Shown here piece by piece: positions 6,419 through 31,440 of a stretch of 64,000 nt of DNA (positions are counted from its first letter, which is position 1; every line of letters begins with the position of its first letter). Source of the stretch: Thermoanaerobaculia bacterium (GTDB taxonomy: Bacteria > Acidobacteriota > Thermoanaerobaculia > Multivoradales > UBA5704); the NCBI GenBank assembly GCA_049284515.1, contig JBAPYB010000416.1, forward strand, positions 3,582 to 67,581, read 5' to 3'. The position numbers and the translations under genes were made by a program. The notes under the pieces were generated by a model, which saw only the letters and a program-made list of their open reading frames with translations, ran no database searches and was not told the origin of the DNA.

Positions 6419-6489
6419 GACTCCAAAGCATATCCTAAGTCAGCGCCAAGATATCCTTCGACGTAATCAATCTAGGATACAAAGAGCGA

Positions 6490-9344: not shown

Positions 9345-9377
9345 CTATTAACGGCGCCCCCTCGTCTTCTTGCTTAT

Positions 9378-9449: not shown

Positions 9450-9477
9450 AACTCTCTGGCGGCGACCGTAATGGCCG

Positions 9478-9545
9478 TTGTCTTTCTCCCTCTTCTCCCG
9501 GCCGGGGGGAGGGCGATGGGAGAAGAGGGCCGGGGTGATGAGGGG
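9478..9545. repeat. REP-like 68-bp hairpin element, copy 1
   Basis: Repeated at 27019-27086 with 2 mismatches. Contains the inverted repeat ctcttctccc...gggagaagag. Confidence 0.75.
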
Positions 9546-9609
9546 TCTTGGGAGGGTGGCAAGCCCTGGTTCCGTGCTATGGTCCCCTGTCGCTTCCGGA
9601 GGGAACCCG

Positions 9610-9846
9610 ATGAACCGGCAGACGCTGGCTCTCAGCATCGAGCAGGAGCTTTTGGAGGAGGCGCACGCAGTGGCGGTGCGGCGGCATACGTCCGTCAACG
9701 AGATGGTCCGCCAGTTCTTGAAGCAGGTCGTCCGGCAGGAACGCAAGCGCCTCGAGGCCTGGCACGACGTCAAGAAGCTCTTGGAAAAGCCCCAGGTCCG
9801 GCTCGGACCGGCTCTCCGGAGCCGGGAGCGGCTCCATGAAAGGTGA
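9610..9846 (+). CDS. VapB-like antitoxin
   Basis: ATG at 9610, trimmed from ORF 9478..9846 whose N-terminus reads through the REP element. 78 aa. Overlaps the start of the downstream PIN gene. Confidence 0.7.
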   Translation: MNRQTLALSIEQELLEEAHAVAVRRHTSVNEMVRQFLKQVVRQERKRLEAWHDVKKLLEKPQVRLGPALRSRERLHER

Positions 9847-10261
9847 GCTCGCCGCCTTCGTCGACACCAGCGTCCTCGTCTATGCCGTCTGCGCCGACCA
9901 GCCCCACAAGCAGCGGCTGGCCCGCAGCATCGTCGAGCGCGGTTTCGTCGAGGGGTGCTATGCCACCAGCACTCAGGTCCTCGTGGAGCTCTACGACCTC
10001 CTCACCCGTTGCGCCGAGGTGAAGCTCTCCGCCATGGAGGCCGCCGACTTCGTCCGCGCCCTCCGCGAGTGGCACCTCGTCGAGATGGACTCCGACCTCG
10101 TCTCCGCCGCCCTCAGCCTCGCCGAGCGCGAGGAAATGTCCCCCTGGGACGCCGCCATCCTCGAAGCCGCCCGCCGGGCGGACTGCACCCGCGTGCTCTC
10201 CGAGTCGCTACCGGCAGGGCGGACGTACGAGGGGGTACGGGTGGAGAATCCGTTCGCGTAG
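9836..10261 (+). CDS. vapC: PIN-domain toxin VapC
   Basis: 141 aa. N-terminus is AFVDTSVLVYAV (PIN acidic motif). The 11-nt overlap with the antitoxin is typical vapBC architecture. Confidence 0.85.
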   Translation: MKGELAAFVDTSVLVYAVCADQPHKQRLARSIVERGFVEGCYATSTQVLVELYDLLTRCAEVKLSAMEAADFVRALREWHLVEMDSDLVSAALSLAEREEMSPWDAAILEAARRADCTRVLSESLPAGRTYEGVRVENPFA

Positions 10262-10353
10262 GCGGCGAAGTGTGTTACGCCCCCGGTGCAACGGACCGGT
10301 GAAGAACCCAACCCGCCGTGCTAGGATCGTGGTCTCCGGAAGGAGGCGCGGCA

Positions 10354-10908
10354 ATGGCAGTTCACGATCTCCCCCGCAAGCTCACCTACGACGATTACGC
10401 CTCGATCCCTGAGGATGGCCAGCGCCACGAGATCCTCGACGGAGAGCACTACGTGAGCCCAGCGCCTCTCATTCCGCATCAAGAGGTCTCTTCCAACCTG
10501 CACACGGAGCTGGGCCCGTTCATCAAGAAGCACCGGCTGGGCAAGCTGCTGGCCGCTCCCACGGACGTGATCCTCTCTACTCACGACGTCGTCCAGCCGG
10601 ACTTCCTCTTCATCTCGACCCAGCGGTTCGGGATCATCACCCGGGAGAACGTCCAGGGCGCGCCGGACCTGATCATCGAGATCCTCTCTCCAGGGACCCG
10701 CAGCCGGGATGAAGGAATCAAGAGGGAGATCTACGAGCGCTACGGCGTCCCGGAGTACTGGCTGCTCGATCCGGACCGCAAGACCACCCGAGTTTACCGG
10801 CGCCTCGGCAACCGGCTCCGCCTCGTCGCCAAGCTCTCCGCGGGGGACGTGCTCACGACGCCCTTGCTGCCGGGGCTCGAAATCCGGCTGGCCGACGTCT
10901 TCAACTGA
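10354..10908 (+). CDS. Uma2-family (DUF820) putative endonuclease
   Basis: Contains YDDY...GQRHEILDGE...PDF.F......GAPDLIIEILSP...D...K...Y...GVPEYWLLD, the characteristic Uma2 pattern. Probable start is M13 of the ORF. Confidence 0.85.
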   Translation: MAVHDLPRKLTYDDYASIPEDGQRHEILDGEHYVSPAPLIPHQEVSSNLHTELGPFIKKHRLGKLLAAPTDVILSTHDVVQPDFLFISTQRFGIITRENVQGAPDLIIEILSPGTRSRDEGIKREIYERYGVPEYWLLDPDRKTTRVYRRLGNRLRLVAKLSAGDVLTTPLLPGLEIRLADVFN

Positions 10909-11303: not shown

Positions 11304-12641
11304 TCACCGAGCCTTCCTATCCTGTAGCAACTCCACCACTTTCCTCACGCGCAAGTCATTCCCGCCGCTCTCGTCGATATTTCTACAGTCTTCTTGCCAT
11401 TTCTCTAGTCGCCCCCTATCTTGCTCCGCTTCAATAATTGCACCAAACTCTCTACCCTCTTCTGAAACAGGCTGAAGCAGCCTACGGTAAGTGTCACTAT
11501 TCCAAAGGCTACTCCAGATCCGACGCCACAACGCCAAAGTCTCGCCCCGCAAAACGCTAAGTGCTTGTTCTTTAGAGCGCTCTTCTTCTACTTCAAGGTC
11601 GGATAGTCCACCCGTAGCCTTTGGGTGAAATAGCCGAACTAAGAAAGCCAGCCTACTTGCGTCAATGATCAGGCCCGCTGCGCTGAGCTCCGAAACAATC
11701 GCCTCACTTGTCGACTCTTCCTTTTGTCGCTTTCGTACAACGCTCTCTACATACGTCCTCGCATCCTCCGAAAGGTCGCCGCAAATTTCGTCCACACAAC
11801 TCCTAAATGCGAGGGAGTAGCGCTCCGCCACAGCGAGGAGAAAACCCCAAAGCCCTCTTCGGTCACCGGGCAAAGGTACCGCCCTTGGAAGGCTTACGAC
11901 CTGATCTGCGAACCATTTACAAAGCATGGCGATCAGATGCGGATGCCTTCCACAGAAGGCTAAAATATCTTGTTCTACATACCTCAACTGAAAGTCCTCG
12001 CGCTCCTCCTTTCCAATCACCCTTGAAATAACCCCTCGTATAAGCTCCCGGCTTTCCTCTTCACTGAGCCCACGGATCACCATGTCGGGCCTCCCGACAA
12101 TTGGCTTCGGAAATGGTCGCTTGGACCATGCCACTTCTCCAGAATCATTCCTCTCCTCAAATACGATCTTAACCTCTACGTCACCTAGGAGCCCAGAAAA
12201 AATACTATTGACCTGAGCATCGATTTTGCTCGTCCTTCCCGGAACTCGAACTAAGAGCCGCTTTATCCCCATTCGCTTTAATCCATCAGCGATCATATAA
12301 CCCAGCCCCAAGAGGGACCGGCCTCTGGAAAGCTCCGCCGCCTGCTGAGCCCACTCCTTTCCGAGGTTGGACCCAACAAACTCTATGAGACCTTCAAGAG
12401 GCGTCTTATCTATGGGCTCAGGAACAAGCTTAAAGTATGCACCTCCATTGGCGACCACTTCAAAGGCTCTAACGATCATGCACGTCTTGCCGATCCTGTA
12501 CACTCCACGGACTCGTCGCAGATCGGAGCCGGAATCCGCCATGAAGGCCTTTAACTGCTCGAAAGGCCTCAAACGCGTACCTGTCGCCTCTAACCCGACG
12601 AGCACTTCGCCCTCCCCAAGCTTTTCGTTCTTCTCTTCCAT
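11304..12641 (-). CDS. Hypothetical protein in the island operon (~445 aa)
   Basis: Long ORF in low-GC DNA with the start trimmed to MEEKNEKLG. No motif was recognised by eye. Confidence 0.55.
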   Translation of the reverse strand: MEEKNEKLGEGEVLVGLEATGTRLRPFEQLKAFMADSGSDLRRVRGVYRIGKTCMIVRAFEVVANGGAYFKLVPEPIDKTPLEGLIEFVGSNLGKEWAQQAAELSRGRSLLGLGYMIADGLKRMGIKRLLVRVPGRTSKIDAQVNSIFSGLLGDVEVKIVFEERNDSGEVAWSKRPFPKPIVGRPDMVIRGLSEEESRELIRGVISRVIGKEEREDFQLRYVEQDILAFCGRHPHLIAMLCKWFADQVVSLPRAVPLPGDRRGLWGFLLAVAERYSLAFRSCVDEICGDLSEDARTYVESVVRKRQKEESTSEAIVSELSAAGLIIDASRLAFLVRLFHPKATGGLSDLEVEEERSKEQALSVLRGETLALWRRIWSSLWNSDTYRRLLQPVSEEGREFGAIIEAEQDRGRLEKWQEDCRNIDESGGNDLRVRKVVELLQDRKAR

Positions 12642-12661
12642 AGGGGCACTCACAATGGTCG

Positions 12662-14578
12662 TCAGACCCCTTCTACTCTGCTTGCTTGAGCCAGTAGACC
12701 TACCCTCAACCGACAAGTCTTGTTTGCTTCGTCAATATGGATGATCTCTTTCTCAGCCAGAGCCTGGATCAGCGGGCCTTCCGCTGCCACTACCTTCCTC
12801 GTGTAACCATGCTCCGAAAAACGCTCGGCGGTGCCGACCAGCCGTACAAGGAAGGTCCACTCTTCCTCGCTAATGCTTTCGCTCATGTACGCGATATAAT
12901 TGTGCTCCGTCACCAAAACCTCTTTGGCGACGGCTTTCATGATCTTTATGTCAATCGGAAATCTTCCTCCGTGGGCCGCGACGTAATCTACCGCTCTTTG
13001 GAACAAAAGCTGTGCCAACCCAGGCCACCCTCCGCTTGCGCACCAAATGTATTCTACCGCTAAATCGGTAAATTTGATCGATTCGGACACTTCTGCGAGT
13101 CTCTGTAAGTCGGGCAGGCTTAGGAAAGGCACTCTTCTCGGCAGCACTGAAACGCCTCCTGAATCGAAGCGTGTTTTCCAACCCCGGGACGACCAATCAT
13201 GCGTAACAAGCATTCTGTAACCGTTAGCACCACTGGCGAGTTCTTCAAGCAAGTCCAAAACCACGCTGGCATTACCCTTTAAGTTTGAGCGAATGACTGG
13301 TATGTCTAGTTCGTCAATGAAAAAGATAAATCCTTGCCTATCTGTGGCCTGAGATAGAAGCCCCAGAATCTCTCGTAGCCCTTCCGCCGAGAGGCTAAAC
13401 TGCGGACACCTCTGTAACACTCCACTATTCCTGGAGACGCTCTCCGCTATATCCAAATTGCCAACGGCCAAGCTGGAGACATACCTTTGCGCGCTGGCTG
13501 CGAGCTCAAAGCATATGTCACCGGCGCCTAAAACGTCATCTCCGTCCATTCTATTTTCCCACCATCCGAACACGTCAAGGACAAGAGGCATAAACTTCTT
13601 CTCTGCCTCTACCTCCCTCGCAATCCTTCTGAGAACAGTTGTCTTTCCTGTCCGACGGCAGCCACGTAACACAACCACTTTCTCCCCGCCCCAACTCTGC
13701 CCAGACAGTTCAGCTACGAGTGCCTTGTGCCGGCCCTTAACCAGCCGTTCCCACTGTAGCTCCGAAATGAGCGGTAAGTCCGCCACATACGGATTGACGA
13801 CGCTCAATGGCGGCGTGGGCGTGTGAAGGATGACCTCAAGATGGTTTGAGGATAGCATCCTCTCCGATGCCGATGCCGCACCGGACCAGCTTGATTCCGC
13901 CCAGAATTCGAGAACGCAGTCTTGCTCATATCTCACAGTGACAACTCTCCGAAGGCCCGAGTGCCCGGTAATATCTCCTAAACGCACAGTCCACAACCTC
14001 TTTTGCTTATCCCAAACTGAATCTTCAATACTAGGCTTACCATCGCCCAGCGCACGGAGATAAAGGGATGTGGCTCCTGCTCCCAATCGGCCTCTGTTTT
14101 CGATTGAAATCGGCAGGTCGAGAGAGTAAGGTCCACTCGCAGAATGGAGATCCTCTTCTATGACTTCGTGATCGAGTGACACAGCAAGGGACACGAGAAG
14201 AAACGCATTCTCCTCCTCACCGCGCAACCCTCTCAACCAACGGCGGGCTGTTTCGAGCATGATCAATTCTTCTGGAAGCCCCTCATCATCGATAGCCATG
14301 ATTTCTTCAAAAGCTGCGAGCCGGTCAGCCAGAAGATCGGGAGTACCGGAGCTACAAAAAGCCTCAGCTGAGTAGCCGACTAACTCTTTAAGGGGAGTCC
14401 TACCTTGAACGCTGTCTGCTGAAAAGGTGACGTTCTCCTGGAGAGGAGACGCGGTCGCAATTCTTACCAGTTCCGAGTAGACATTAACCCTTTCCTTCGC
14501 TCCTGGAACGCCGATCTCCGCAAGATTCATAAGCTCGTCGCGGTATCGGCCTAGCGCTTCCACCTCACGTAATTTCAT
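12662..14578 (-). CDS. STAND/ORC-like P-loop ATPase
   Basis: 638 aa. Walker A is LRGCRRTGKTTVL and Walker B is FIFFIDELD. A long N-terminal extension of ~300 aa and a helical C-terminus are present. Confidence 0.7.
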   Translation of the reverse strand: MKLREVEALGRYRDELMNLAEIGVPGAKERVNVYSELVRIATASPLQENVTFSADSVQGRTPLKELVGYSAEAFCSSGTPDLLADRLAAFEEIMAIDDEGLPEELIMLETARRWLRGLRGEEENAFLLVSLAVSLDHEVIEEDLHSASGPYSLDLPISIENRGRLGAGATSLYLRALGDGKPSIEDSVWDKQKRLWTVRLGDITGHSGLRRVVTVRYEQDCVLEFWAESSWSGAASASERMLSSNHLEVILHTPTPPLSVVNPYVADLPLISELQWERLVKGRHKALVAELSGQSWGGEKVVVLRGCRRTGKTTVLRRIAREVEAEKKFMPLVLDVFGWWENRMDGDDVLGAGDICFELAASAQRYVSSLAVGNLDIAESVSRNSGVLQRCPQFSLSAEGLREILGLLSQATDRQGFIFFIDELDIPVIRSNLKGNASVVLDLLEELASGANGYRMLVTHDWSSRGWKTRFDSGGVSVLPRRVPFLSLPDLQRLAEVSESIKFTDLAVEYIWCASGGWPGLAQLLFQRAVDYVAAHGGRFPIDIKIMKAVAKEVLVTEHNYIAYMSESISEEEWTFLVRLVGTAERFSEHGYTRKVVAAEGPLIQALAEKEIIHIDEANKTCRLRVGLLAQASRVEGV

Positions 14579-15977
14579 TACCCCCTCCTACCGCCATTCT
14601 CAAATCCCACGCAGCTTTAGATAGGTTCCGTATCCCTCGATAGAGTCCTGCTTCTCCGTCGATGCTGCCGGGTGATTCCTTCATCTCTATGAAACCACGA
14701 AGAAGCTCCACGCCGAGCGGCTGTACTCGAAACGACTCGTACTCTTCCAGCAAAATTTCGGGATGCAAAATCCATCTACGCGCAATCACAGGGGCGAGAC
14801 TCCAGGCGATCTCTCGGGGCTTCTCATTAGAAAGCAAGCCGACAATCCGAAGTCTCTCGTGCTCTAGGTCGGCGCAATGGTTAATCATTGCCGATAGGAT
14901 TTCTCTCAGTTCCTCGCTTATGGTCCCCCCCGACTCTCGCGCCAACGAAACTCCTTCTGTGAGGGCGGCTTCGAGGGCCAAATTTGCTTCATCGCGTTTA
15001 CCAACTTTTTTGCCGAGCTCCACCGCGGCACTTCGCATCCTCTCTACTTTCGCAAGACTTACAGATACTGAGCCTCTTCTCAGTCGCGCTCTCCTCCAGA
15101 GCAAGTAGGACCAGAGCGCTAGAGCACCAAAGCCGATGGGCAACCAAACGCGGACCATCTTCCCTCGGTACCCGCTCCACATATTCTCCGTTGACCCACC
15201 TGAGAGAACTCGAGGTCTCGGTTCCAGCGATATCGGAGCTTCAAGTTTATTCTGGAGAATGCGTCTTGTCTCCAGGAGGAGATTGGTGCCCTCCGACACT
15301 CGGATATACCTTCCATGCCCCAACACCCTCTGCCAGAGAAGCATCTCGCGTTGGCGATCCCCAACTGCTAGAATATTGACCTCTGCACCCCAAGCCTCCA
15401 GACTCCTGATGGCTTGCACAGGTGAAACAGAGTTAGTTGCTGTATACAAATCCTCGCCGCTAAGATAGCTTTTCTCCTCTGGTTCGCTCATTCGCCTCGG
15501 TTGAAGCCAAGGTTCCCCATCTGTAATCATGAAAACCAGACACATGCGATTGACAAAGCAAGGCTTGCCTCTCCGGAAGGCTGATAGAGCGTATTGAAGT
15601 GGAGGCCTGAAGTCCGTGAATGAGATCGGCACTGAGTACGAGAAAGGCGCCTGATCTCCCGACTTGCCATCCATCACTATTTTCGCTCCCAATTTTTCTC
15701 CAAAATCAACCGCTTCTATGTGAACCTCTAAACCGTAGAAATCGACCGCGCCTGCGAATTGCCTTAAAAGGCTCGTGGCTAATTTCGTTACGGCCGGTTC
15801 TCCGTTGTACTTCCTTGCCACCATGCTCGGTGATCTGTCTAGAAGAAGTACGATGTCCAATTTCGGCTCTGCGCTACTCACTTGCCCTAAGACTTCAGCC
15901 GAGACCCCCGTTGTTAACAGAGTCGAGAGTAGGAGAACTTCGAAAAGCACTCTTCCGACTGGTAGGTGTAAGGACAT
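14565..15977 (-). CDS. Membrane-anchored vWA-domain protein
   Basis: 470 aa. N-terminal signal-like segment is LLLSTLLTTGVSA. MIDAS motif is LLLDRSPSM and MITDGEPW follows. An internal TM helix (VWLPIGFGALALWSYLLW) precedes a helical tail. Confidence 0.7.
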   Translation of the reverse strand: MSLHLPVGRVLFEVLLLSTLLTTGVSAEVLGQVSSAEPKLDIVLLLDRSPSMVARKYNGEPAVTKLATSLLRQFAGAVDFYGLEVHIEAVDFGEKLGAKIVMDGKSGDQAPFSYSVPISFTDFRPPLQYALSAFRRGKPCFVNRMCLVFMITDGEPWLQPRRMSEPEEKSYLSGEDLYTATNSVSPVQAIRSLEAWGAEVNILAVGDRQREMLLWQRVLGHGRYIRVSEGTNLLLETRRILQNKLEAPISLEPRPRVLSGGSTENMWSGYRGKMVRVWLPIGFGALALWSYLLWRRARLRRGSVSVSLAKVERMRSAAVELGKKVGKRDEANLALEAALTEGVSLARESGGTISEELREILSAMINHCADLEHERLRIVGLLSNEKPREIAWSLAPVIARRWILHPEILLEEYESFRVQPLGVELLRGFIEMKESPGSIDGEAGLYRGIRNLSKAAWDLRMAVGGGNEIT

Positions 15978-16140: not shown

Positions 16141-17646
16141 CTACTTTCTCTCGAAGTTCAAAGACAAGCATCCGCGGTAGCGGCTACGGCCCACGGTCTT
16201 CTGTAAGATGCTAGTCGAGACATCGCGAAGGTAGAGGGTCTTTCCTGAAATTGCTTTCGGGGAGGTGTCATCCTGTGTGCTCCAAGCGCCGAGCCAATTC
16301 TCTGCCCCGATGAAACTCATGTCGACAGAAATTGACAAAGGGATGGCTAGCTTCCATCGATCGCGCGGCTGCGAGACTAGTCGCTCGTAAGGGATCGAGA
16401 GCTCTAAGTACTGAACCATGGAACTATCCTGCACTGGCTGCTGGCGCTTGACCTCGAAGTGAGGGATGCCGCGTGTTAATCTCGCACCGAGATCCAGATT
16501 CCCCTCGGACGCACTCTTCCAAGCCTGCAAAGGTAGGCTTAGCAAAACGTCATCTTGGTTGATAGATAATCGAACCTTCACAGGAAATAGAATCTCCGAG
16601 GATCTTGGTTGCTCGAAGTCTAGCTCAGCTAAGCTCATTGAGGTATCCATCGGGCGATGAGTCCAGCTCCGAACACGAAATATATCGACGAAACCGGGCG
16701 AGGCCTGCTGATCTCCCGGCCCGTGAGAAACCTCTATCTCTTCTGGTTCTTCAACTACGAGTGAAGGCAAAATCCCAGGAAAGAACTCGATGACCTGGCT
16801 CTTGGAATGGCTACCTGCACTCAGACCGCTGTACCTTTCCAAATCTTCATGCAATCTCGCGACGAGTCGGCGCCCCTTCTCCCAATCTCGAGATACAACC
16901 CAACAATAGAAAGGCCTTTCACTCCCTTGCTGCAAGGTTATCCTTTGATTGGTTACAACACCCGCCGGTCCTCGGGTAAGAAGTACACTATAATAGACTC
17001 CATCGAAAGGGCTTTGAACTCCCAGAAGCCAAACCCCGAATCCTTTACCTGCAAGATCTCCCGTTACTGCCCTAACGATACCGGACCGATCAAAGCCAAA
17101 AGCTCTTCGTTCTTTAAAGGTCTCCAAATCTTGGGTGTTGTCCGTGATTACGACACTGAGAGAGGATTCCTTTCCGGAAGCTCGCTCTAGAGCCGCAACA
17201 ATATCCGTGTCGCGCTGGGAATAACTTCCCCTGCTTCTAACGAAATCTTGAAGATGGCTTAAAGGCGAGGGCGATGTAGGAACTTCACTTCCAAACGGAT
17301 AGAATCCTGGCACAACACCAAGGTCGTTCAATTCCTCCAGCAAAAGACTTTGCAAGAGTTGCTGGAGAGGTGACACGGGCATCGCGTGAGTAGCGTCACT
17401 AAGATATCCCTGCATAGACTCGGAGGAGTCCAGGTAGATATCCGCTTGGGTGACTGGCGCTGAAGCAAACTCGGTTGCTTTCTCAGAGTGGCACAATTTC
17501 TCCGCGTCCTCCGTACCCTCAGTGGTCCCTCCGCAAGATGTTCCCAAGAAAAGGGCGACTGTTGCCAACAGAGCAAGCCGGACAGTTAGCCGGTCGTTGA
17601 TTCTGCCCCTCCTCATCGATAGCCTCCTCAAAGCCTCAGACGACAA
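16141..17646 (-). CDS. Secreted or lipoprotein-like vWA-like protein
   Basis: 501 aa. Signal sequence has a lipobox-like FLGTSC. MIDAS-like motif is IYLDSSESM and VVITDNTQD follows. Confidence 0.6.
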   Translation of the reverse strand: MSSEALRRLSMRRGRINDRLTVRLALLATVALFLGTSCGGTTEGTEDAEKLCHSEKATEFASAPVTQADIYLDSSESMQGYLSDATHAMPVSPLQQLLQSLLLEELNDLGVVPGFYPFGSEVPTSPSPLSHLQDFVRSRGSYSQRDTDIVAALERASGKESSLSVVITDNTQDLETFKERRAFGFDRSGIVRAVTGDLAGKGFGVWLLGVQSPFDGVYYSVLLTRGPAGVVTNQRITLQQGSERPFYCWVVSRDWEKGRRLVARLHEDLERYSGLSAGSHSKSQVIEFFPGILPSLVVEEPEEIEVSHGPGDQQASPGFVDIFRVRSWTHRPMDTSMSLAELDFEQPRSSEILFPVKVRLSINQDDVLLSLPLQAWKSASEGNLDLGARLTRGIPHFEVKRQQPVQDSSMVQYLELSIPYERLVSQPRDRWKLAIPLSISVDMSFIGAENWLGAWSTQDDTSPKAISGKTLYLRDVSTSILQKTVGRSRYRGCLSLNFERK

Positions 17647-18454
17647 AGGTGCCCCTCCTCACCACCAAATCCTTCGAAATAAAGCCTTCGAGGGACCCCT
17701 GCGCTTCCAGGAGGGCACAGCGCCGAAGCTCTTTCACGAAGAGATCCACGCTTCCGCTGGCTCCCAGAACCTCAAAGAGATGATCATGCACCAGGGGATC
17801 ATAGCGGCTATAGTTGCGTGGGATGAGAAAGCGCCTGCAGTCCTTCTGGGGATCTCGGTATGCCACTGACAAGAAAAACCAATGATTCGAGCCGCCTCTC
17901 TCCACAGAGGGATAAGGCTCGATAATAGGTTCCGCTAAGCCCTCATTTCGAAAGTAATCGAGAAGTTTTTTCGATGCTTCCTCGAAGGCTCCTTCCATCC
18001 CAGGCCACACCCCCGCCAAGAATCCTGGCGCACTCAATTCACGAGCTAGCAGATTTTCGAGCGCGAGAGAATCCTGCTCCTCGCGTCTGGGGAGTTGCGG
18101 AAGCTGGTCAAGGTGCAGGGATGCAACGGCTTCATCTTCTTGGTTGTCATGCTGAGGAGCCCTTCTTGGTTCCGCCAGTTGCCCAGCCTTCCTGAAATCG
18201 GCTTGGAGCGCCAGAGCGTCGGTCAAGGGTTTGAGATCGAGGCTTTGGGGCTTCTGCGCCAGGATCTGCGTCAAAAGGAGATCGGTCTTACTCTCGACAT
18301 ACTTCTCGAGAGCCCGAAACTCCCGGCGCCAGTCCTCGATCGAAGGCAGGGACTGTCGGTTCTTTGCCTGCCGGCTCTGCAACCACAGCCACACTACGCC
18401 ACTGAGCGACAAGGCTTGGAGGACGACAAGCCAGATTAAGAGGGCCTGCTGCAA
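17636..18454 (-). CDS. N-terminally membrane-anchored protein of unknown function
   Basis: 272 aa. Has a single N-terminal TM helix (LLIWLVVLQALSLSGVVWLWL). Its start abuts the stop of the upstream gene. Confidence 0.55.
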   Translation of the reverse strand: MQQALLIWLVVLQALSLSGVVWLWLQSRQAKNRQSLPSIEDWRREFRALEKYVESKTDLLLTQILAQKPQSLDLKPLTDALALQADFRKAGQLAEPRRAPQHDNQEDEAVASLHLDQLPQLPRREEQDSLALENLLARELSAPGFLAGVWPGMEGAFEEASKKLLDYFRNEGLAEPIIEPYPSVERGGSNHWFFLSVAYRDPQKDCRRFLIPRNYSRYDPLVHDHLFEVLGASGSVDLFVKELRRCALLEAQGSLEGFISKDLVVRRGTFVV

Positions 18455-21400
18455 TCAGAGCCTCCTGGCTCGATAAAGCTGCTTCAGGTAGATCGTCTCG
18501 AGGAATCGCACGAGGATGCTGCGGTTTACCAACGGGCGCTCGATGTTCACGATGTCCTTGTTGCACTCCCTCTCAAGCGCTTGGACTTCGGCGCCTTTCT
18601 CGAACTGGATGAAATCCCAAGCTGGCGGGAGCTTGATCTCTGAAAGGACCGGATGCAAACGAGAGTCCGAGAGCTGATGGGGCACGACCTCATGCCAGGG
18701 CACATCTTCGCGCTTTCCCGAACCGTTGCTGTAGCGGACGTCAAATCCGACAACGGACCGGACGCCATTTACTCCGTTGCCGACATCCTCAATGCTGCGG
18801 TACAAATCTCTCTCTGCCGCTATGATCGTGCCGTAGCCAATCGCCGCCTTCGGTCCGGGCCAAGTAATACCGTTCCCGAGACTAGGCTCCCTTGCAGCCG
18901 TCAGTTTGGTGAAGCCCTCCCTCTCAAGAAGGAAGCGAAACACTTCACGAAAGCCGGCGCGGTAGTTAGAATCCTGGGAGGGTACGACATCGGCCAGAGA
19001 CCAGCCATTTCCTACGAGATAGAAGGTCACCTCTTCCTGACGATAGTCCTTCTGCCGATGGACCGACAATGAGTCGAACAAGCAACGAATAAAATGCGCG
19101 ATGGGAGAGTAGAATCGTATAAGCAGATCGATCATTACCTGCCGGGCATGAGCGTTGCCGCGATATTGCGTCCGCACGACGGTCTCGAATCCTCGCAGGC
19201 GGGTTTCCCGCAGCAACCACAAGAGGCGATGCCGCGCGTCGCGAGTCTCTGTGGGCTTCGGAAACAGGTCCGCTTGGCGATCATCGGCGAGTAGGCGCAG
19301 GAAGGCGTTGCCACCATAGAGCAGACTATCGATGAAGATTGGCTTCAGCTCGCTCTGATCCCATTCGAACATGCCGATGTCGGTAGTACCTCCCCCCATA
19401 TCTACAACCAAGGAGAGACCCTCAGGAACTCTTAGAGAAAACGCCGCCGCTCGCGACTCATCAATGAAGTGTTGAGTATTGGTCGGGAACCCAGTGAGCC
19501 TGTCGAGCGATTTCAAAACACGGTCAAGGCACTGGAGATACGTTTTCAACTTGGCTTGGGAAAAGGCTCGCGGGAATGACGCCCGCACTTTGAGGAATCC
19601 GGTCCTCGGCTCCTCGGCAATGATCGTCGCCAAGGTGAGAACGAGGAACAGCTCGAGGTAGCGAGACACGGCCTGTTCATAGGTGAAACGACCCGCGGCA
19701 TCGCCCTTCTCGTCCAAAGTCTTCAATTCGTAGATGACTTCTCCCTGGGGCTCCGAGACGTAGACGTGCAGAATGCGAAATCCGCCGATCGGCTTGTTCA
19801 GCATCTCCGCCGAGACCGGAGGAGTGACCACTAATTCTGACGGAATGAAGTAATTCATCCTCTCAATGATCTCGATGGGTTCTGGAGCCACGCCGTCCTC
19901 AGTTTGAAGTTCAGAGAAGTAGCGGGATCGAACCGTCTCCTCATCGTCGATGCGGTAAGTCGGCAGCCACTGAGAAGTCCGAATGATACGATCTGATATC
20001 GTTCGGTTTCCAATCAGCGTTTCGGTGAAGTCTCGAAACCGTATGACCTTGGGCGCATCGTCACCGATCCTATACCACACCGAGGAGCTCGACGTTCCAA
20101 AGTCGAGCGATATGGTCACCGGAGTCTGACCACGATGCTGCTCGACGCGAGAGGTCTCATAGATTCCCGACTGAGACTCGATCTTCCCGTCTTTAGAAAA
20201 GACAATCTCGAATGCTTCAAAAGGCTGCGTTAACTGGCCACGCCTGTCCGTTAACAGCGTCGGCTCACCGTGAGTATCCAGGCTTCGCAGGGTAATACCC
20301 GCCTTGTTCATCCCCGGGGTCGATTCAAGGAGGTAGTAGTATACGTTCCACCCCCTTAGGTTGAATCGCGGCCAGGAAAGGAGGATCGCTTCCTCCTTCT
20401 GGATCTCCTTGGGTGAGTACCGCAGAGTAATGGTGGTGCTCTTCCAGCCTTCGACGTTCACCTTTAGTGGTACGATGTAGTCACCCGACAGACGATCCAT
20501 TACAGCGCGCCTGTCATCCGCAATGGACACCAGTCCGTAGTACTCGCCCCGCACCGGCAAACTCGGCTCATACTGATGGCTGTTGTCCTGAGGGTCCTGA
20601 AAGAAGATCAGCCGAGTGCATTTGAGGGCGTCTTCCGTCAGGATGAGCCCGCGTATCTTGAGAGAGAATTTCCCCGTCTGGAGGACAATCCCATCTTGTT
20701 CGTAGGACACGTACTTGGAATAGGGGAGACGGCGCACGGGACTATCGGCAAAAGCATAAATGAGATAACGGTTTCGCCCCTCGTCAAATTTGATCCATGT
20801 CGCGTACTCCTCCAGCCAATTCTGCCTCGCGCCGCAGTGCGGGCAGCGACATTCATCAGGATGAGCGATGTCGACCTGACCTGTTTCTGTTGTGATGTCG
20901 AACCCGCAATTCTCGCAAACAATGGGCGTACCGATATAGAGAGGGATCTGGGGCTGTGAAACTTCTGCGGCCAAGCCAGCCTCCCCCAGGCGCAGAACCG
21001 GTCCAACTCCGAAGAGCCGCGCAGGCTCCCGCGGCAGCGAGCCCGATGCATCGGGATTCCACACCGCCGCCAACCTGTAGACCAAGGTGTAGAAGGGCAG
21101 ACGCCCCTGGTCTTGCTCATCGAAGGTGCGAACCCAACCGACGAAATACTCGGACGCCTTTTCCACATCCTTCGCCTGGACCGCCTCCTTCAAAGACGCG
21201 AGGGTCTCAGGTCTCAAGCGGGAAGCAGGAGCGAAACCGATACCTGGATACGTGAAGCCAATAACGCTACCAGAATACGTCAGGAATTGAAACCGAAATC
21301 CGGATTCGAACGATTCGAACTCTCGGTGGAGGATCAGCCCCAATTCTTTTAAATCCTCCAGCTTGACGTCTCGCGGTGTGATTAAGCCGAGATAGATTCC

Positions 21401-21667
21401 CTTGAGTATCAGGCTCCAGAGCTCGAAGCTCTCGCTGAAGCGAAGCCTGGAGCCCTTACCCTGGAGATCTAGCAGGTATTGGTCGAGACGATTTGCAAAG
21501 ACGAGCGCGTTCGCCAGCGGCGAAGGGGTTCCGAAGTCGCTGGCATCGAAGTAGTTCTCGCATAGATTGCGCTGATAATCCAGATCGGAGACCCCGTGGA
21601 GGCCAACCTCGGCTTGGTGGGGCCAATCCTGCACTTTCGGCTTGGGCAGCAGGGGAACGGTCGCCAT
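18455..21667 (-). CDS. Giant Hsp70/actin-fold ATPase with an N-terminal region containing a zinc ribbon
   Basis: 1070 aa. Zinc ribbon is CENCG...18 aa...CPHCG (aa 251-279). Phosphate-1 is SLDFGTSSSSV (aa ~519). Phosphate-2 is VVDMGGGTTDIG (aa ~753). An adenosine-like motif FYLVGNGWS is present. Confidence 0.75.
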   Translation of the reverse strand: MATVPLLPKPKVQDWPHQAEVGLHGVSDLDYQRNLCENYFDASDFGTPSPLANALVFANRLDQYLLDLQGKGSRLRFSESFELWSLILKGIYLGLITPRDVKLEDLKELGLILHREFESFESGFRFQFLTYSGSVIGFTYPGIGFAPASRLRPETLASLKEAVQAKDVEKASEYFVGWVRTFDEQDQGRLPFYTLVYRLAAVWNPDASGSLPREPARLFGVGPVLRLGEAGLAAEVSQPQIPLYIGTPIVCENCGFDITTETGQVDIAHPDECRCPHCGARQNWLEEYATWIKFDEGRNRYLIYAFADSPVRRLPYSKYVSYEQDGIVLQTGKFSLKIRGLILTEDALKCTRLIFFQDPQDNSHQYEPSLPVRGEYYGLVSIADDRRAVMDRLSGDYIVPLKVNVEGWKSTTITLRYSPKEIQKEEAILLSWPRFNLRGWNVYYYLLESTPGMNKAGITLRSLDTHGEPTLLTDRRGQLTQPFEAFEIVFSKDGKIESQSGIYETSRVEQHRGQTPVTISLDFGTSSSSVWYRIGDDAPKVIRFRDFTETLIGNRTISDRIIRTSQWLPTYRIDDEETVRSRYFSELQTEDGVAPEPIEIIERMNYFIPSELVVTPPVSAEMLNKPIGGFRILHVYVSEPQGEVIYELKTLDEKGDAAGRFTYEQAVSRYLELFLVLTLATIIAEEPRTGFLKVRASFPRAFSQAKLKTYLQCLDRVLKSLDRLTGFPTNTQHFIDESRAAAFSLRVPEGLSLVVDMGGGTTDIGMFEWDQSELKPIFIDSLLYGGNAFLRLLADDRQADLFPKPTETRDARHRLLWLLRETRLRGFETVVRTQYRGNAHARQVMIDLLIRFYSPIAHFIRCLFDSLSVHRQKDYRQEEVTFYLVGNGWSLADVVPSQDSNYRAGFREVFRFLLEREGFTKLTAAREPSLGNGITWPGPKAAIGYGTIIAAERDLYRSIEDVGNGVNGVRSVVGFDVRYSNGSGKREDVPWHEVVPHQLSDSRLHPVLSEIKLPPAWDFIQFEKGAEVQALERECNKDIVNIERPLVNRSILVRFLETIYLKQLYRARRL

Positions 21668-21683
21668 CGCTTACCTCCAGACT

Positions 21684-23099
21684 CTACAGACTAAAAACTT
21701 GCGCCAGATGCGACAGGAAGAGGTTCGAGAATCTTTCCGCGAAGGCTTCGGGAGTGCGTAGGTCCCTCTTCGGAAACTGTGCCACGACGTGCCGATCGTC
21801 ACACCAATCCTGGATCGCGGCGAGCGGCTCGGCGACTGTCTGATCGTAGCGCTCCGCCAAGACTCTTTCGGCTCCCTCTGGGAATGGGAAAAAGTGGGGA
21901 TGGTTCATTTTCTTGATCCAATCAACATTGGCGGTTGACTGGCCCTGGAGTTTTCCGAGGTAATCGGCAACGGCAGCAGTCACCTGATTGTCCGTCAGCG
22001 TGGAGCCTTTCAGCATGTTGATCGCCGTCTGGATCAAGATAGGCTGATGTGAGCCCGGAAGTCGCGGGAACTTTCGGAAAAACTTGCTGAGGATGCCTAG
22101 CCAGTGGCCGCGAACGTACGACCGGTGGATCACCTTGATCAGGCTGAGGGGGTCGGCGTTCGCCTCGCGATTCACCAACAGGTTACTGGCATTGAGTCCG
22201 CTTTCATCGTCGTACCAATATCCAGCTATTCCCTGAGGTGGGGAGAGAGCACCGGCGAAATGATTCTGGACCAGCAGAGCTGCCAGGAGATTGAGGATAT
22301 GAGGGACCTCATCCTGCGACGACTCGCTGCTGGTCCGGTCCACCTGGCCGGGATCAGGAACACCCAGGAGAAATACCGTGTTCACAAATTGACGCAGCCG
22401 CTCCCGGAAGTAGTAGATGCCGGCGGCCGCATTAGGCTCGAAATTCGCATTGAGATAGTCGTGTAGCTTCGCCTGGGAGGCCTTCACTCCACCTTCTGGT
22501 GGGATGAGACGGAACCACGGTAAGAAGATCATGGCGTCCACCTGAAGGTTGTAGCCAGGCTGGCCATTCAAGCGGGAAAGCTCAGAGGCGAGCATCGGCA
22601 CCCCGCCGGACCCGGTGCCTCCAAAGCAGGAACCGACGAGAATGACGTGCTTCTCTCCTCCTCTCAAGGCGTTCTTCAGGTCCTTCATATCCTCGTCGTC
22701 CTGCTGGATCTTGTACTGGATGCAGGTGGCCCCGATCGCGGGCCGGCCATACATGCCGGTACGGATCGGCGTATGCTCCGCTTCTTCGGAGAAGAGGCAA
22801 TTGAAGAGCTCCCGGCGGTCCCCCGCCAGGTTTCCGAACAAACTGCCAAACGTCTTTCGGTCGGCATCGGCGATCGGAAAGGGGTCGATCATCCAGCGGA
22901 GAGGGGGCTCCTTTCCACCTACCACTTCTTTGACCCTTCCCTTGAGCGTTGCGAGCACGCGGCCCAACGGGCCTTCGGTGTCTGAATCCACGACGTAGAA
23001 CGTCGCCGGAGTAAAGCCGGCCATCTCCGCAAGCCGCAGGTAGGCAGCGAGGACCATCTGCCCAGTACCGCCAACTCCGATGAGAACAGGGATCTTCAT
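21684..23099 (-). CDS. Tubulin/FtsZ-superfamily GTPase (Tubulin_2/FtsZl1-like)
   Basis: 471 aa. T1-like loop is VLIGVGGTGQ. T3-like loop is GMYGRPAIGA. The tubulin signature is GSCFGGTGSGGVP (nt ~22602-22622). Confidence 0.75.
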   Translation of the reverse strand: MKIPVLIGVGGTGQMVLAAYLRLAEMAGFTPATFYVVDSDTEGPLGRVLATLKGRVKEVVGGKEPPLRWMIDPFPIADADRKTFGSLFGNLAGDRRELFNCLFSEEAEHTPIRTGMYGRPAIGATCIQYKIQQDDEDMKDLKNALRGGEKHVILVGSCFGGTGSGGVPMLASELSRLNGQPGYNLQVDAMIFLPWFRLIPPEGGVKASQAKLHDYLNANFEPNAAAGIYYFRERLRQFVNTVFLLGVPDPGQVDRTSSESSQDEVPHILNLLAALLVQNHFAGALSPPQGIAGYWYDDESGLNASNLLVNREANADPLSLIKVIHRSYVRGHWLGILSKFFRKFPRLPGSHQPILIQTAINMLKGSTLTDNQVTAAVADYLGKLQGQSTANVDWIKKMNHPHFFPFPEGAERVLAERYDQTVAEPLAAIQDWCDDRHVVAQFPKRDLRTPEAFAERFSNLFLSHLAQVFSL

Positions 23100-23113: not shown

Positions 23114-23746
23114 TCAGCCATTCTCCATGATGCGCTGAAATTTCTTTGCTGTCACGGACCTTGGAAGCGTCACTCCTACCCAGAAGAAGAGAAACGCCGC
23201 CAGGAGAGAAGTCAATAGAATGAAAAGGCCGAGAACGAGGCCGCCAAGCCAGCTTCGCAAGGCCCAGGCGGCAGGAAGGAACTGCTTGGCGAGCTCGACC
23301 TCATTGGTCGGCTGAAAGATAGCCCTGGGCAGGCCGATGCCTGAAAGGATGCACGCGACGGCGAACAGCAGGAACAACGCATTGAACCAGGACTTCGATT
23401 CTCGGTCGGCGGCAATGGCACGCGCGTTCATGGCTGAGGTCCAGCGATACCAACCCGCGAGCCCCATACCCATGAAGAGACTGATCAGAGCCCACACAGA
23501 GAGAAATAGCCATTTCTGGCTGGCTACGAACTCAGGGCGGATCAAGCCGCTTGAGCTCGTGTCGATCGGGCCGAGAAAGCGCCCCGTTATCGCGTTGACC
23601 TGGTTTGGCAACAAAGTCGTGTAGATGCTGAACATAACCGACAAGATCGTTGCGATTGAGGCTGCCACGTTGAAAACGGCGTCGAGCTTGCGCTGGTTGG
23701 CCACAGAAATCTCCTCACGCGTAAGCGCGGAACAAAATCGAGACAA
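23114..23746 (-). CDS. Integral membrane protein, first gene of the island operon
   Basis: 210 aa with about 4 TM helices. TTG start; an alternative GTG start lies at 23704. Confidence 0.6.
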   Translation of the reverse strand: MSRFCSALTREEISVANQRKLDAVFNVAASIATILSVMFSIYTTLLPNQVNAITGRFLGPIDTSSSGLIRPEFVASQKWLFLSVWALISLFMGMGLAGWYRWTSAMNARAIAADRESKSWFNALFLLFAVACILSGIGLPRAIFQPTNEVELAKQFLPAAWALRSWLGGLVLGLFILLTSLLAAFLFFWVGVTLPRSVTAKKFQRIMENG

Positions 23747-23815: not shown

Positions 23816-23844
23816 AGTATTCCACGCAGCGACGGGCTGGTCAA
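23816..23844 (-). promoter_or_regulatory. Candidate sigma-70 promoter of the island operon
   Basis: The minus strand reads TTGACC-17 nt-AATACT about 70 nt upstream of the first gene. The match is weak. Confidence 0.25.
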
Positions 23845-27086: not shown

Positions 27087-27244
27087 CTCCCCAACCGCTT
27101 GAATCCAAAAAACCGGATCGTCTCCGTTTTTCTGGACGAACTGTCCGAAAAGTGTGAGAAAATCAGGGTTTAGGACGGATTCAAAATGTCGTTGGCGTGG
27201 CATAGAAAGTGCTTTATCCGCTCGTGGATCAGAGTCCTTTCTCC

Positions 27245-30057
27245 ATGACGCGGCTTCGCAATCTTCGACTGGCGCTCTCCCTTGCGCTCGCCATGGCAGT
27301 GGTGGCCTTGGGCGGCTTGAGCGTCGCCCGGAAGGTCCATAGCTTCCAGGCGCTGGGATTCGAGGTCACTCCCCAGGCCGGCGGCGTCGTGGTGAGCTCG
27401 GTGCAGATCCCCAAGACGGGACTGCGGCCGGGGGACGAGATCCTCACCGTCAACGGTCACGAAGTGCCGACCCGGGACCAGCTCGTGGAGGGGTTGCGCG
27501 AACGGCCGGCCAGCGAGCTCGGTTTCACCCGCGGCGACCAGTTCCTCCGCCTCCAGTACCACCGGCCGCCGCTCCAGATCGACTTCCCCTACCTGATCTT
27601 CTGCCTGATCTCCGTCGTCTACCTGGGGATCGGGCTCTATACCCTGCTGCGCCAGAAGGACGGCCAGGGATTTCTCTTCTACCTCTGGTGCCTGACCTCG
27701 GCGGCGCTCTACCTGTTCACTCTGGCGCCGCCGCCCGGCGCGGCCCGCACTCTGATCTACCTCGGCGACGAGCTCGCGCGACTGCTGCTGCCGGTGCTGA
27801 CGCTCCATCTGTTCCTGGTTTTCCCGACGCCGTTGGCCTCTGCGGCTACTGCGGCTACGCCGGAGACCAGAACCGCGGGCTGGATTCGCCGGCTGACTCC
27901 GTTCTTCTACCTGCCGGCGGCGGCGATGATGGCCCTGCAGCTCGACATGGTGCTCAACCACGGGCACATGGTGTTCGGCAAGGTCACGCCGGCGCGGCTC
28001 GCGGCCCTCGACCGCATCGAGCTGCTCTACTTCGCCGTCCTGCTGCTGGCGGCGGTCGGCGTCCTCTTCTGGCGCCTCCGCCGCGGCGCGGCCTGGGAGC
28101 AGCACCGCCAGATGCAATGGATGGCGTGGGGCGTCGCCTGCGGCTACCTACCGTTCCTGGCCCTGTACTTTGCCCCGCTCGCCCTGCACCTTCAGCCGTC
28201 GCAGCTCCTGACCTCGGCCGCCGTGCTCCCCCTGGGGCTGGTGCCGCTGACCTTCGCCTACGCCGTCCTGCGCTACAAGCTGTGGGACATCGAGGTCATC
28301 GTCCGCGACACGATCTCGCTGACGCTGACGCTGCTCCTCGGGATCATCGGCTTCTCGCTGGTCGACCTGGCGATCAACCACGGCATCTCCAAGGAGCTTT
28401 CCCTCGCCCGCAACCTGCTGTCGTTCCTCTCGGGCCTGGGCATCGCCGGCCTGCTGGTGCCCACCCGCGGCGCCATCTCCTCGGCGTTGGAGCGCATCCA
28501 CTACCGCGACACCTTCGGCAAGCGCAAGGCGCTGACGGGCCTCGGCCGCGAGTTGCTCCAGGAGCGCGATCTCGGACGCCTGTGCTCGGCCCTCCTCGAC
28601 CGCATTCAGGAAGCGGTGGACGTCGAGGCCACGAACCTCTATCTGCTCCAGGGGGAGGCTCTGGCGGTCATCCGGCCGGAGCCGGGTCTGCCCGGCCGGG
28701 TGCCGCTCGACGTCCTGGGCCTGGATCTCTGGACCCGGGACTTCGAGCGTCTCTCCGGCGTCGGCGTCTCCATGCCGGCCGAGTATCCCCTGCCCGGACG
28801 GTTGTTCGCGGCCGGCTACCGCTACGCCTTCCCGCTGACCGTGCGCGGCCGCGGCATCGGCATCGCCCTCGCCGGCTTCAAGCGCGACCACATGCCGCTC
28901 AACAGCGAGGACACGGACCTCATCCGCCACCTGCTCAACCAGGCGGCGCTCGCCATCGAGAACGCCCAGCTCGTGGGCCAGCTCCAGCTCCAACTGGAAG
29001 AGGTCCGCCAGCTCCAGAGCTACACCGAGGGGATCTTCGAGTCTTCCCCGGCCGGCATCGCGGTGCTGGACGGCGAGCGCCGGTTGCAGTCGGCCAACAG
29101 CGCTTTCGCCGGCATCGTGGGCCGCAGCCGCGACGAGGTCTCGGGCCTCAGCCTGGAAACCGTGCTGCCCGTGCAGCCGCTACCCGCTCCCGGCGAGGGG
29201 CCGGTCGAGGCGCGCTGGAGCGACGCCCAGGGGCGCGAGCGCCATCTCCAGCTCTCGCTCGCCTCCTTCGAGCACGGCTGGCGCCAGGGGCTCTACGTGC
29301 TGGTGGTGCACGACGTCTCGGAGCGGGTGGCGATGGAAAACGCACTGCACGAGAAGGATCGCCTGGCGGCCCTCGGCATGCTGGCAGCCGGCGTCGCCCA
29401 CGAGGTCAACACGCCGATCACCGGCATCTCCAGCTACGCCCAGATGCTGCTCCAGGAGACGGCGCCGTCGGATCCGCACTACGACATCCTGAAAAAGGTG
29501 GAGCGGCAGACGTTCCGCGCCTCGCGCATCGTCAACAACCTGCTCGACCACGCCCGCAGCCGCCAGAAGGAGCGGTCGCCGGTGGTCGTGGCGCCTCTGG
29601 TTTCCGAGTGTCTGGACCTCCTCGCCGAGCGGCTGAGCCAGAGCCACATCTCTCTACAGTGGACGCCATCTTCTGTTGACAGCAGCCGGCAGATCCAGGT
29701 GCTGGGCTGTGACGGCGAGCTCCAGCAGGTGTTCACCAACCTGATCGTCAACGCGGTGGACGCCATGCATGATACCGGCGGCCGGCTGACGGTCGAGCTG
29801 ACGGCGAATGACATGCTGGTAACTCTGCGGGTGAAGGACACCGGTCCAGGCGTGCCGGCCGACAAGCTCGAAATGATCTTCCAGCCCTTCTACTCGACCA
29901 AGCTCAGCCGCGGCGGTACCGGCCTGGGCCTGTCGATCAGCACCGAGATCGTCCAGCGCCACGGCGGCACCCTGCGGGTGGTGAGCCCGCCGGGAGAGGG
30001 GGCCTGCTTCCTGGTGGAGCTGCCCCGCTTCCAGGCTCCTCCTGGCAAAGTCACGGC

Positions 30058-30061
<4 letters not shown>
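27245..30061 (+). CDS. Sensor histidine kinase (PDZ, multi-TM, GAF/PAS, HisKA, HATPase)
   Basis: PDZ-like segment is GLRPGDEILTVNG. Many TM helices are present. H-box is AAGVAHEVNTPITGI. G-boxes are DTGPGVP and GTGLGLS. Confidence 0.85.

Positions 30062-31440
<1,379 letters not shown>

Follow-up and report, generated by a model that had tools for sequence, protein, structure and literature searches.

What is a protein with tubulin-like nucleotide-binding loops doing in a bacterial gene neighborhood that is not one of cell division, and does it belong to the tubulin superfamily at all? The question is raised by a gene, here called B, at positions 21684..23099 (minus strand) of a 64,000-nucleotide stretch of DNA from a Thermoanaerobaculia bacterium (Acidobacteriota; contig JBAPYB010000416.1), which was analyzed at its full length and is hereafter referred to as the window. 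A sequence-only reading of this DNA had proposed that the gene encodes a divergent tubulin/FtsZ-superfamily GTPase of the Tubulin_2/FtsZl1 type, and our analysis bears this proposal out; the feature that we find to be the most informative, namely an obligate neighboring gene for an HSP70-like partner protein, C, was absent from that reading. Taking the evidence as a whole, we hold with considerable confidence that B is best explained as a tubulin-superfamily protein of the short Tubulin_2 form, encoded in a mobile five-gene cassette (A to E) and working in a membrane-held complex with C. To our knowledge, tubulin-superfamily proteins other than FtsZ, TubZ/PhuZ, CetZ and BtubAB are almost entirely unstudied, and we know of no FtsZl1/Tubulin_2 protein whose function has been established.

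The open reading frame, for which the sequence-only reading gave no strand, runs on the minus strand from an ATG at 23099 to a stop codon at 21684-21686 and encodes 471 residues; the ATG is preceded, at a distance of 7 nt, by a Shine-Dalgarno sequence (AAGGAG) that stands 14 nt past the stop codon of the preceding gene. The three nucleotide-binding loops that had been recognized by eye stand in canonical order at exactly the residues assigned to them, with little or no variation in any of them across 37 homologues: the T1 loop IGVGGTGQ (residues 7-14, 23058..23081), the T3-like loop GMYGRPAIGA (residues 115-124, 22728..22757), which precedes a helix at residues 120-133, and the S4-T4 signature GSCFGGTGSGGVP (residues 156-168, 22596..22634), which both hmmsearch and hhalign aligned to the T4 loops of FtsZ, CetZ and TubZ. 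By secondary-structure order the full set T1-T5 is present, as it is completed by a T2-like DSD at residues 38-40 and by a T5-like loop, LPWFRL (residues 193-198, 22506..22523), which follows strand S5 and is invariant among the 37 homologues. The T4 heptad of B, GGTGSGG (residues 160-166), lacks the first glycine of the canonical GGGTG(S/T)G; the pattern GG[TS]G[STA]G arose in 102 of 200,000 residue shuffles of B and occurs just one other time in the six-frame translation of the whole window.

Conservation at these loops reaches far beyond the immediate relatives. A metagenome-assembled genome (MAG) of Thermoanaerobaculia (Acidobacteriota) encodes a 'hypothetical protein' with 100% identity to B, which has 37 further homologues, every one of them metagenomic, at 45-79% identity; in their alignment G115-P120, G123, A124, G156-G165 and P168 do not vary, and at least 90% of the sequences keep G10, G11, G13 and Q14. 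In a wide alignment of 101 relatives at about 20% identity, G10, G11, G13, G115, P120, G160 and G161 are still invariant, and D38, D40, G123, T162, G163 and F196 are each kept in at least 90%. This pattern argues for purifying selection that keeps a working GTP pocket in B.

Sequence profiles and a predicted structure converge on the same superfamily. Among Pfam models, Tubulin_2 (E=8e-5, 22.4 bits) and Tubulin (E=7e-4, 20.3 bits) both match B, with matches centred on S4-T4-H4, and the two models match 29 and 27 of the 37 family members, respectively. When PDB sequences were searched with the family profile, CetZ, FtsZ and TubZ made up five of the seven matches listed, and with the wide profile 51 of the 56 matches listed were FtsZ, CetZ or TubZ around T4, the rest being weak and unrelated in both cases; the best E-values of these searches were 0.0025-0.006. 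An hhalign comparison placed residues 135-200 of the B profile on residues 82-139 of Escherichia coli FtsZ (H3-S4-T4-H4-S5-T5), pairing GGTGSGG with GGGTGTG and LPWFRL with the T5 loop KPFNFEG, in an alignment to a single FtsZ sequence that is weak taken alone (58 columns, probability 48%). The AlphaFold2 model of B, which was built from the 37-sequence alignment, has a mean predicted local distance difference test score (pLDDT) of 87.2 and a predicted template-modeling score of 0.90, and Foldseek found 698 matches to it in the PDB at E<=1e-3, of which the top 50 are all alpha-, beta- or gamma-tubulin, FtsZ or BtubA, with probabilities of 0.97-1.00; in the viral structure library BFVD the best matches are phage tubulin-like proteins. 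A Rossmann-like fold unrelated to tubulin, which would have told against the proposed membership, was not seen.

Three points weigh against this assignment. B lies below the curated Pfam gathering cut-offs of both Tubulin_2 (PF13809; 27 bits) and Tubulin (33 bits); its Foldseek TM-scores are low (0.25-0.41), with large root-mean-square deviations and large inserts; and the wider family shares no conserved acidic motif of the T7 type. The low TM-scores are explained by the fact that only the GTPase core, of about 250-300 residues, superposes, and one of the inserts, of about 60 residues, lies between H2 and T3. Judged by its predicted fold, the Rossmann-like GTPase fold that tubulin and FtsZ have in common (an S1-S6 sheet with H1-H5), which settles the superfamily question, B is a genuine, highly divergent tubulin/FtsZ-superfamily GTPase.

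The same model divides B into a GTPase domain (residues ~1-300) and a purely helical C-terminal domain (residues ~320-468), in agreement with the earlier failure to recognize a canonical FtsZ C-terminal domain or T7 loop by eye. Of the chorismate-mutase-like C-terminal domains, neither FtsZ_C nor Tubulin_C has a Pfam match in B or in its 37-member family, and no T7-type NxDxx[DE] motif, whose catalytic acidic residues serve in the superfamily to switch on GTP hydrolysis in the adjacent subunit, was found in the alignments of the 37 homologues and the 101 relatives; the loop that follows the H7-like helix reads GIxGYWYD, and an acidic residue at position 297 (D/E297) is present in 36 of the 37 close-clade sequences but is not kept in the wider family. 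Q262, E264 and H267 are invariant. In the absence of a family-wide T7, polymerization-activated GTP hydrolysis cannot be assumed for B. The gene annotation of the window places no dcw genes in the neighborhood of B, as had been proposed, and B is not a division protein.

Within the superfamily, Tubulin_2 is the better of the two Pfam matches of B. Seven close homologues carry a precomputed PF13809 match, a fusion relative reaches 28.2 bits with that model, and the family profile matches the RefSeq 'tubulin-like doman-containing protein' WP_013325769.1 (PF13809) of Gloeothece verrucosa at E=4.8e-30; together these results establish homology to the PF13809 family despite the sub-threshold score of B itself. 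The T1 loop agrees with this placement, as the T1 block of the alignment of Makarova and Koonin (2010) gives an IGLGGTG-type loop for FtsZl1 and GLGRCGSN for FtsZl2, and the GxGGTG of B has the FtsZl1 form in that block. According to the same authors, similarity in FtsZl1 ends near H5, the T6-H7-T7 segment and the canonical C-terminal domain are missing, and the classical proteins, of about 1000-1100 residues, consist of an FtsZ-like domain, a long coiled coil and a helical C-terminal domain (Makarova and Koonin 2010). By its sequence, then, B is a short-form member of the Tubulin_2/FtsZ-like-1 lineage, so that the proposed type stands with the caveat that the protein is short and has no coiled coil.

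This short form is widespread. A HMMER scan of 1.84 billion representative sequences returned 1,546 relatives of B at E<=1e-3 and 558 at E<=1e-10, mostly of 450-520 residues and some of 1340-1970 residues, and the PF13809 form of about 500 residues makes up more than 2,000 clusters at 90% identity in cyanobacteria. A scan of GTDB species representatives with the patterns of the family found a single distant locus, and a tblastn search of B against phages gave no match.

What sets the locus apart is the gene that follows B. It encodes C (18455..21667, minus strand), a protein of 1070 residues that combines a zinc ribbon with an HSP70-like ATPase domain and that is organized, from the N-terminus, into a conserved disordered peptide (residues 1-48, 21524-21667, minus strand), a helical domain (residues ~50-240), a zinc ribbon with four invariant cysteines (C251, C254, C275 and C278), a beta-rich domain and an HSP70-like nucleotide-binding domain (residues ~515-1070). 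The HSP70 motifs in the latter are invariant (phosphate-1 DFGTSSS, phosphate-2 DMGGGTTD and adenosine VGNGW), and the AlphaFold2 model of C (pLDDT 81.6) has 719 PDB matches at E<=1e-3 in Foldseek, with the nucleotide-binding domains of Hsc70, BiP and DnaK at E~1e-11 and TM-scores of up to 0.58. Residues 1-48 are nearly invariant and among the most conserved of the whole protein, yet they are predicted to be disordered (pLDDT<50), and they can still be detected where the B that partners the C homologue has dropped to about 26% identity; a stretch that is at once conserved and disordered is a candidate docking peptide for B or for another partner. A C homologue of 993 residues on another locus (L024 10001-12982) has a TIR domain in place of the N-terminal ~240 residues and carries degenerate HSP70 motifs (DFDTSGSS and NMGSDTTD); no tubulin-like gene accompanies it, and its neighbor is a DUF6364-PIN toxin-antitoxin pair.

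The association between B and C holds across distant relatives. In eight independent loci of the close clade the order A-B-C-D-E is conserved and the flanks are otherwise unrelated, with identities across loci of 43-66% for B and C and of 27-38% for A, D and E. B and C are adjacent in every locus with enough downstream sequence; relatives that are 26-28% identical to B again have a C homologue directly after them, and one of these loci, L012, also keeps D-like and E-like genes, so that the vWA protein E is conserved both there and in the close clade. Moreover, at least 20 representative proteins of 1340-1970 residues are colinear fusions of B and C. Adjacency in all informative loci and these fusions, taken together, argue strongly for a joint action of B and C.

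Hosts of the pair include Acidobacteriota, a Deltaproteobacteria MAG and, abundantly, cyanobacteria. In Gloeothece verrucosa PCC 7822 the genes for a small transmembrane protein, the tubulin-like WP_013325769.1 and an HSP70-like protein of about 1100 residues, WP_013325770.1, follow one another on plasmid Cy782204 (NC_014503.1 39251-47534), and the same order is found in Richelia sinica FACHB-800 and in a Trichodesmium MAG; a tblastn search of C against plasmids had given no match, and it was the profile that later detected the Gloeothece homologue. Further downstream, the cyanobacterial loci encode several transmembrane or coiled-coil proteins that share a C-terminal motif, YWI...YLVPK...LFEC...KP.KV. 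Matches between this repeated domain and the C-terminal domain of D were not significant in hidden Markov model and jackhmmer comparisons, and D and the cyanobacterial proteins can therefore be equated by position only.

The remaining genes of the cassette provide it with a membrane setting. The five genes lie tightly packed on the minus strand, with B in second place and with gaps of 14-16 nt or overlaps between them. Gene A (23114..23746, minus strand), whose true start is likely the GTG at 23704 that follows a GAGGAG, encodes a small polytopic membrane protein with about four transmembrane helices; D (17636..18454, minus strand) has an N-terminal transmembrane anchor, a coiled or variable linker and a conserved C-terminal domain (residues ~140-272), and its bulk is assigned to the cytoplasm because positive residues follow its transmembrane helix. 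E (16141..17646, minus strand) is a vWA lipoprotein with an invariant lipobox cysteine (Cys38) and an intact metal-ion-dependent adhesion site (MIDAS), made up of YLDxSxSM at residues 71-78 and ITDxxQD at residues 167-173.

The data give directly the fold and the motifs, the order of the genes, the fusions of B with C and the island; from these we infer the following mechanism. B would bind GTP and work in a physical complex with C, probably docking on the invariant but disordered N-terminus of C, in a manner similar to the partnership of FtsZ with FtsA, an ATPase of the actin/HSP70 fold. A and D would hold this module at the inner membrane, and the module would be coupled to the MIDAS-vWA lipoprotein E outside the cytoplasm, where E may bind a ligand. 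The output would be a nucleotide-driven assembly or remodeling of the B-C complex, whose nearest mechanistic analogy is FtsZ-FtsA; since no T7 is recognizable, GTP hydrolysis by B may not be activated by polymerization, and C could supply a regulatory step in its place.

The cassette sits in a low-GC island at 10-24 kb of the window, as the sequence-only reading had it: the G+C content is 52-58% there, as compared with 65-71% in the flanks, and the island, of about 14 kb, carries the five-gene cassette together with an accessory module, F-G-H (11304..15977, minus strand), directly downstream. F (14565-15977, minus strand) has a signal peptide, a vWA domain with the MIDAS motif DRSPS and a transmembrane helix; G (12662-14578, minus strand) is a STAND/AAA-like P-loop NTPase with the Walker A motif GCRRTGKT; and H (11304-12716, minus strand) is a second P-loop-like protein, with GVYRIGKT. 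The module is optional: homologues of F and G follow the cassette in L006 and in L008, where they are split by an insertion sequence, and a homologue of F does so in L009; none of F or G was found after the cassette in L001 or L007. F-G-H may be a vWA-STAND system in its own right or may be an addition to the cassette.

Several defense or mobile-element genes occupy the left flank of the island (3362-10908), namely a Type ISP/IIG restriction-modification enzyme with N6_Mtase and Type_ISP_C domains (3362-6418, minus strand), a SEC-C-motif protein (6490-8106), a YhgA-like transposase (8355-9344) and a Uma2-family endonuclease (10318-10908). A second low-GC island, at about 42-46 kb (53-54% GC), encodes a protein of 912 residues (42608-45346, plus strand) in which an N-terminal Mrr-type restriction endonuclease domain is fused to an nSTAND1 NTPase and which is a typical STAND-type conflict protein. 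Neighbors of the caspase superfamily occur beside other copies of the cassette: a CHAT protein with an FGE-sulfatase (FGS-like) domain is encoded directly upstream of gene A in L007 (7444-9369), and a Peptidase_C14 (caspase) protein with an Lcl_C domain lies in divergent orientation next to the cassette in L013 (178-1812).

Genes for a PAS-HisKA sensor kinase and for a sigma-54-dependent response regulator lie near the cassette in the window (27209-31440, plus strand) and again in L001 (3825-7532), and one for a regulator alone in L006 (1-1372); this proximity may be a coincidence. Because such genes lie nearby in three loci, a sigma-54 promoter was sought upstream of A, and the idea was dropped, as none was found in the window and a good match (TGGCAG-N5-TTGCG) was present only in L008 (~9186). 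What precedes A in the window is a candidate sigma-70-like promoter, TTGACC-17-AATACT with an extended TG (23816..23844, minus strand), identified by consensus match only.

As to biological role, the most probable one, to which we give about even chances, is that of a conflict system directed against invaders, of the tubulin/HSP70/vWA kind described by Kaur et al. (2020). Such a role would fit the island location and the unrelated flanks in every locus, the plasmid carriage in Gloeothece, and envelope components that evolve faster than B and C; it would also fit the company the genes keep, that is, the TIR-fused C homologue by a PIN toxin-antitoxin pair, the CHAT-FGS and caspase neighbors, and the Type ISP restriction-modification, Uma2 and Mrr-nSTAND genes within the same window. 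Several observations weigh against it. The neighbors that suggest defense are sporadic rather than systematic; a PADLOC scan of the eight island proteins yielded none below E=0.001 and only weak PDC-S01 and PDC-M61B matches, and an NCBIfam scan of the same proteins yielded none near a curated cut-off and only a far-sub-threshold EutJ; the core cassette A-E holds no recognized effector domain, such as that of a nuclease, an NADase or a pore; the cyanobacterial versions lack the vWA component E; and in cyanobacteria, filamentous as well as unicellular, the cassette is very common and chromosomal, an abundance that would also fit a housekeeping role in cell biology. A broader proposal, which we put forward more tentatively, is that B and C make up a widespread two-NTPase machine, independent of the DO-GTPase systems and with its own membrane anchors, that would assemble at the membrane in a nucleotide-dependent manner, that would be the equivalent of FtsZ-FtsA outside the divisome in organisms ranging from Acidobacteriota to most cyanobacterial lineages, and that would serve to contain invaders or to remodel the envelope.

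The alternative that survives best, which is possible though we judge it rather unlikely, would remove immunity altogether and make B and C a cytoskeleton-like, FtsZ-FtsA-like pair that remodels or organizes the cytoplasmic membrane or the envelope, e.g. in the formation of vesicles or in organizing the envelope locally, as a housekeeping or accessory function of the kind proposed for FtsZl1 operons by Makarova and Koonin. The pairing of a tubulin-fold GTPase with an actin/HSP70-fold ATPase, the membrane or periplasmic nature of three of the five cassette proteins and the vWA association described for FtsZl1 are all in keeping with it, as are the wide chromosomal occurrence in cyanobacteria and the missing effector domain already mentioned; however, a housekeeping machine sits less easily with a patchy distribution, with an island location amid unrelated flanks and carriage on a plasmid in Gloeothece, or with A, D and E diverging as fast as they do relative to B and C, while the TIR fusion and the caspase and CHAT neighbors point elsewhere and the lack of a T7 loop leaves FtsZ-like treadmilling unsupported. 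Considerably less probable is a diverged member of the DO-GTPase/GAP1-N2 systems, in which tubulin, HSP70 and vWA proteins are accessories to a TRAFAC-GTPase switch (Kaur et al. 2020); its GTPase and GAP1 components would then have diverged beyond detection, for instance inside the N-terminal half of C or within G or H. That half of C is indeed uncharacterized and is followed by a zinc ribbon, and the P-loop NTPases G and H are encoded beside a vWA protein, but A-H have no Pfam match to DO-GTPase, GAP1, GASH or FNIII at E<=0.1, even though the library includes models from Kaur et al. (2020), one of which, bpMoxR, did find a match in the window; furthermore, A-E have no Walker A motif, G and H are absent from several loci and look STAND/AAA-like rather than TRAFAC-like, and the B-C pair is abundant in cyanobacteria. 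Least probable of all is that B is a degenerate, non-enzymatic tubulin-fold scaffold with little or no nucleotide binding, whose sole use would be that of an adaptor to the HSP70-like ATPase, a notion to which the unconserved T7, the replaced C-terminal domain, the degenerate ATPase motifs of the TIR-fused C homologue and the inactivity of many domains recruited into such conflict systems (Kaur et al. 2020) lend some color, and against which stand the T1, T3 and T4 loops, the T2-like DxD and F196 of T5, whose persistence across the 101 relatives is that expected from purifying selection on a working GTP pocket.

The reading that we favor, a short Tubulin_2 protein in a membrane-held complex with C, has consequences beyond this locus. 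A short Tubulin_2 form that is genetically locked to an HSP70-fold ATPase offers a testable hypothesis for how such a protein could work without a recognizable T7 or a canonical C-terminal domain, and the presence of the cassette in cultured cyanobacteria (Gloeothece verrucosa PCC 7822, Richelia sinica and Nostoc) brings genetics and biochemistry within reach. Were the pair to polymerize or to serve immunity, it would represent a new type of prokaryotic cytoskeletal or immune module, and it would be relevant to the origin of cooperation between NTPases of the tubulin fold and those of the actin/HSP70 fold.

How, then, does the cassette compare with the systems already described? From division FtsZ, B is set apart by the absence of FtsZ_C, of a recognizable T7 motif NxDFxD, of the C-terminal peptide to which FtsA or ZipA binds and of a dcw neighborhood. 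The FtsZl2 proteins, which are proteobacterial, possess all of T1-T7 and a C-terminal alpha/beta region of about 300 residues, and have no conserved gene context (Makarova and Koonin 2010), differ from B in the T1 loop, as far as the T1 block of that alignment is concerned, in its helical C-terminus and in its strongly conserved operon. With TubZ and PhuZ, B shares the character of a divergent tubulin-fold GTPase on mobile DNA as well as comparable Foldseek scores; unlike them, it has neither a TubR/tubC-type partition context nor phage homologues by tblastn, and while TubZ and PhuZ keep the T7 loop and form dynamic filaments, no T7 was recognized in the B family. The likeness to FtsZ-FtsA resides in the pairing itself, whereby the gene for a tubulin-fold GTPase adjoins that for an ATPase of the actin/HSP70 (ASKHA) fold, the two products presumably work jointly at the membrane, and a short conserved peptide is the likely docking element. 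This analogy is mechanistic only: B has no FtsZ_C, no recognizable T7 loop and no dcw genes around it, C resembles the nucleotide-binding domains of HSP70 rather than FtsA and has 1070 residues with additional domains, and the conserved peptide is on the ATPase C, not on the tubulin-like B.

Closer still are the FtsZl1 operons, for which Makarova and Koonin (2010) reported links with vWA proteins, with diverged GTPases, with kinases and with OmpA proteins and proposed a role in membrane remodeling. Like FtsZl1, B has a divergent N-terminal GTPase domain with a GxGGTG T1 and a GGTGxG T4 that is recognizable only to about H5, shows no recognizable counterpart of T6-H7-T7 and lacks the C-terminal domain of FtsZ and tubulin, ends in a helical C-terminus and lies outside a dcw context, and its operon likewise includes vWA (E, plus F) and membrane proteins and is patchily distributed. 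In contrast to the classical proteins, however, B has only 471 residues, with the helical domain directly after the GTPase domain and no long coiled coil, and its associates differ: no TRAFAC GTPase, protein kinase or OmpA protein accompanies it, and its obligate neighbor is a giant zinc-ribbon/HSP70-like ATPase, a partner that is not among the FtsZl1-associated families (Makarova and Koonin 2010).

The DO-GTPase/GAP1-N2 conflict systems described by Kaur, Burroughs, Iyer and Aravind offer the other close comparison, since tubulin, HSP70 and vWA are accessory themes of these systems, which have a pair of DO-GTPase and GAP1 as their core, together with an FNIII-repeat protein (Kaur et al. 2020). 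The B-C cassette likewise brings together proteins of the tubulin, HSP70 and vWA superfamilies, a zinc ribbon, membrane anchors and mobile neighborhoods, and an actinobacterial version of those systems, in which a tubulin domain is fused to an uncharacterized helical C-terminal domain, resembles B in its architecture. In the described systems, however, the tubulin and HSP70 themes do not overlap and are found chiefly in Firmicutes and Actinobacteria, with hardly any of the systems in cyanobacteria (Kaur et al. 2020), whereas here a tubulin-like and an HSP70-like protein occur side by side or fused, and cyanobacteria are prominent among the hosts; moreover, as no DO-GTPase or GAP1 was detected, the cassette differs from the tubulin/vWA systems described to date. 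In our literature search, neither a tubulin-like/HSP70-like cassette nor the Gloeothece proteins were found to be described in any paper. Hence, while B taken alone is a sub-threshold member of a known, functionally uncharacterized family, what is new here is its conserved pairing with an HSP70-like protein and the membrane cassette in which that pairing is set.

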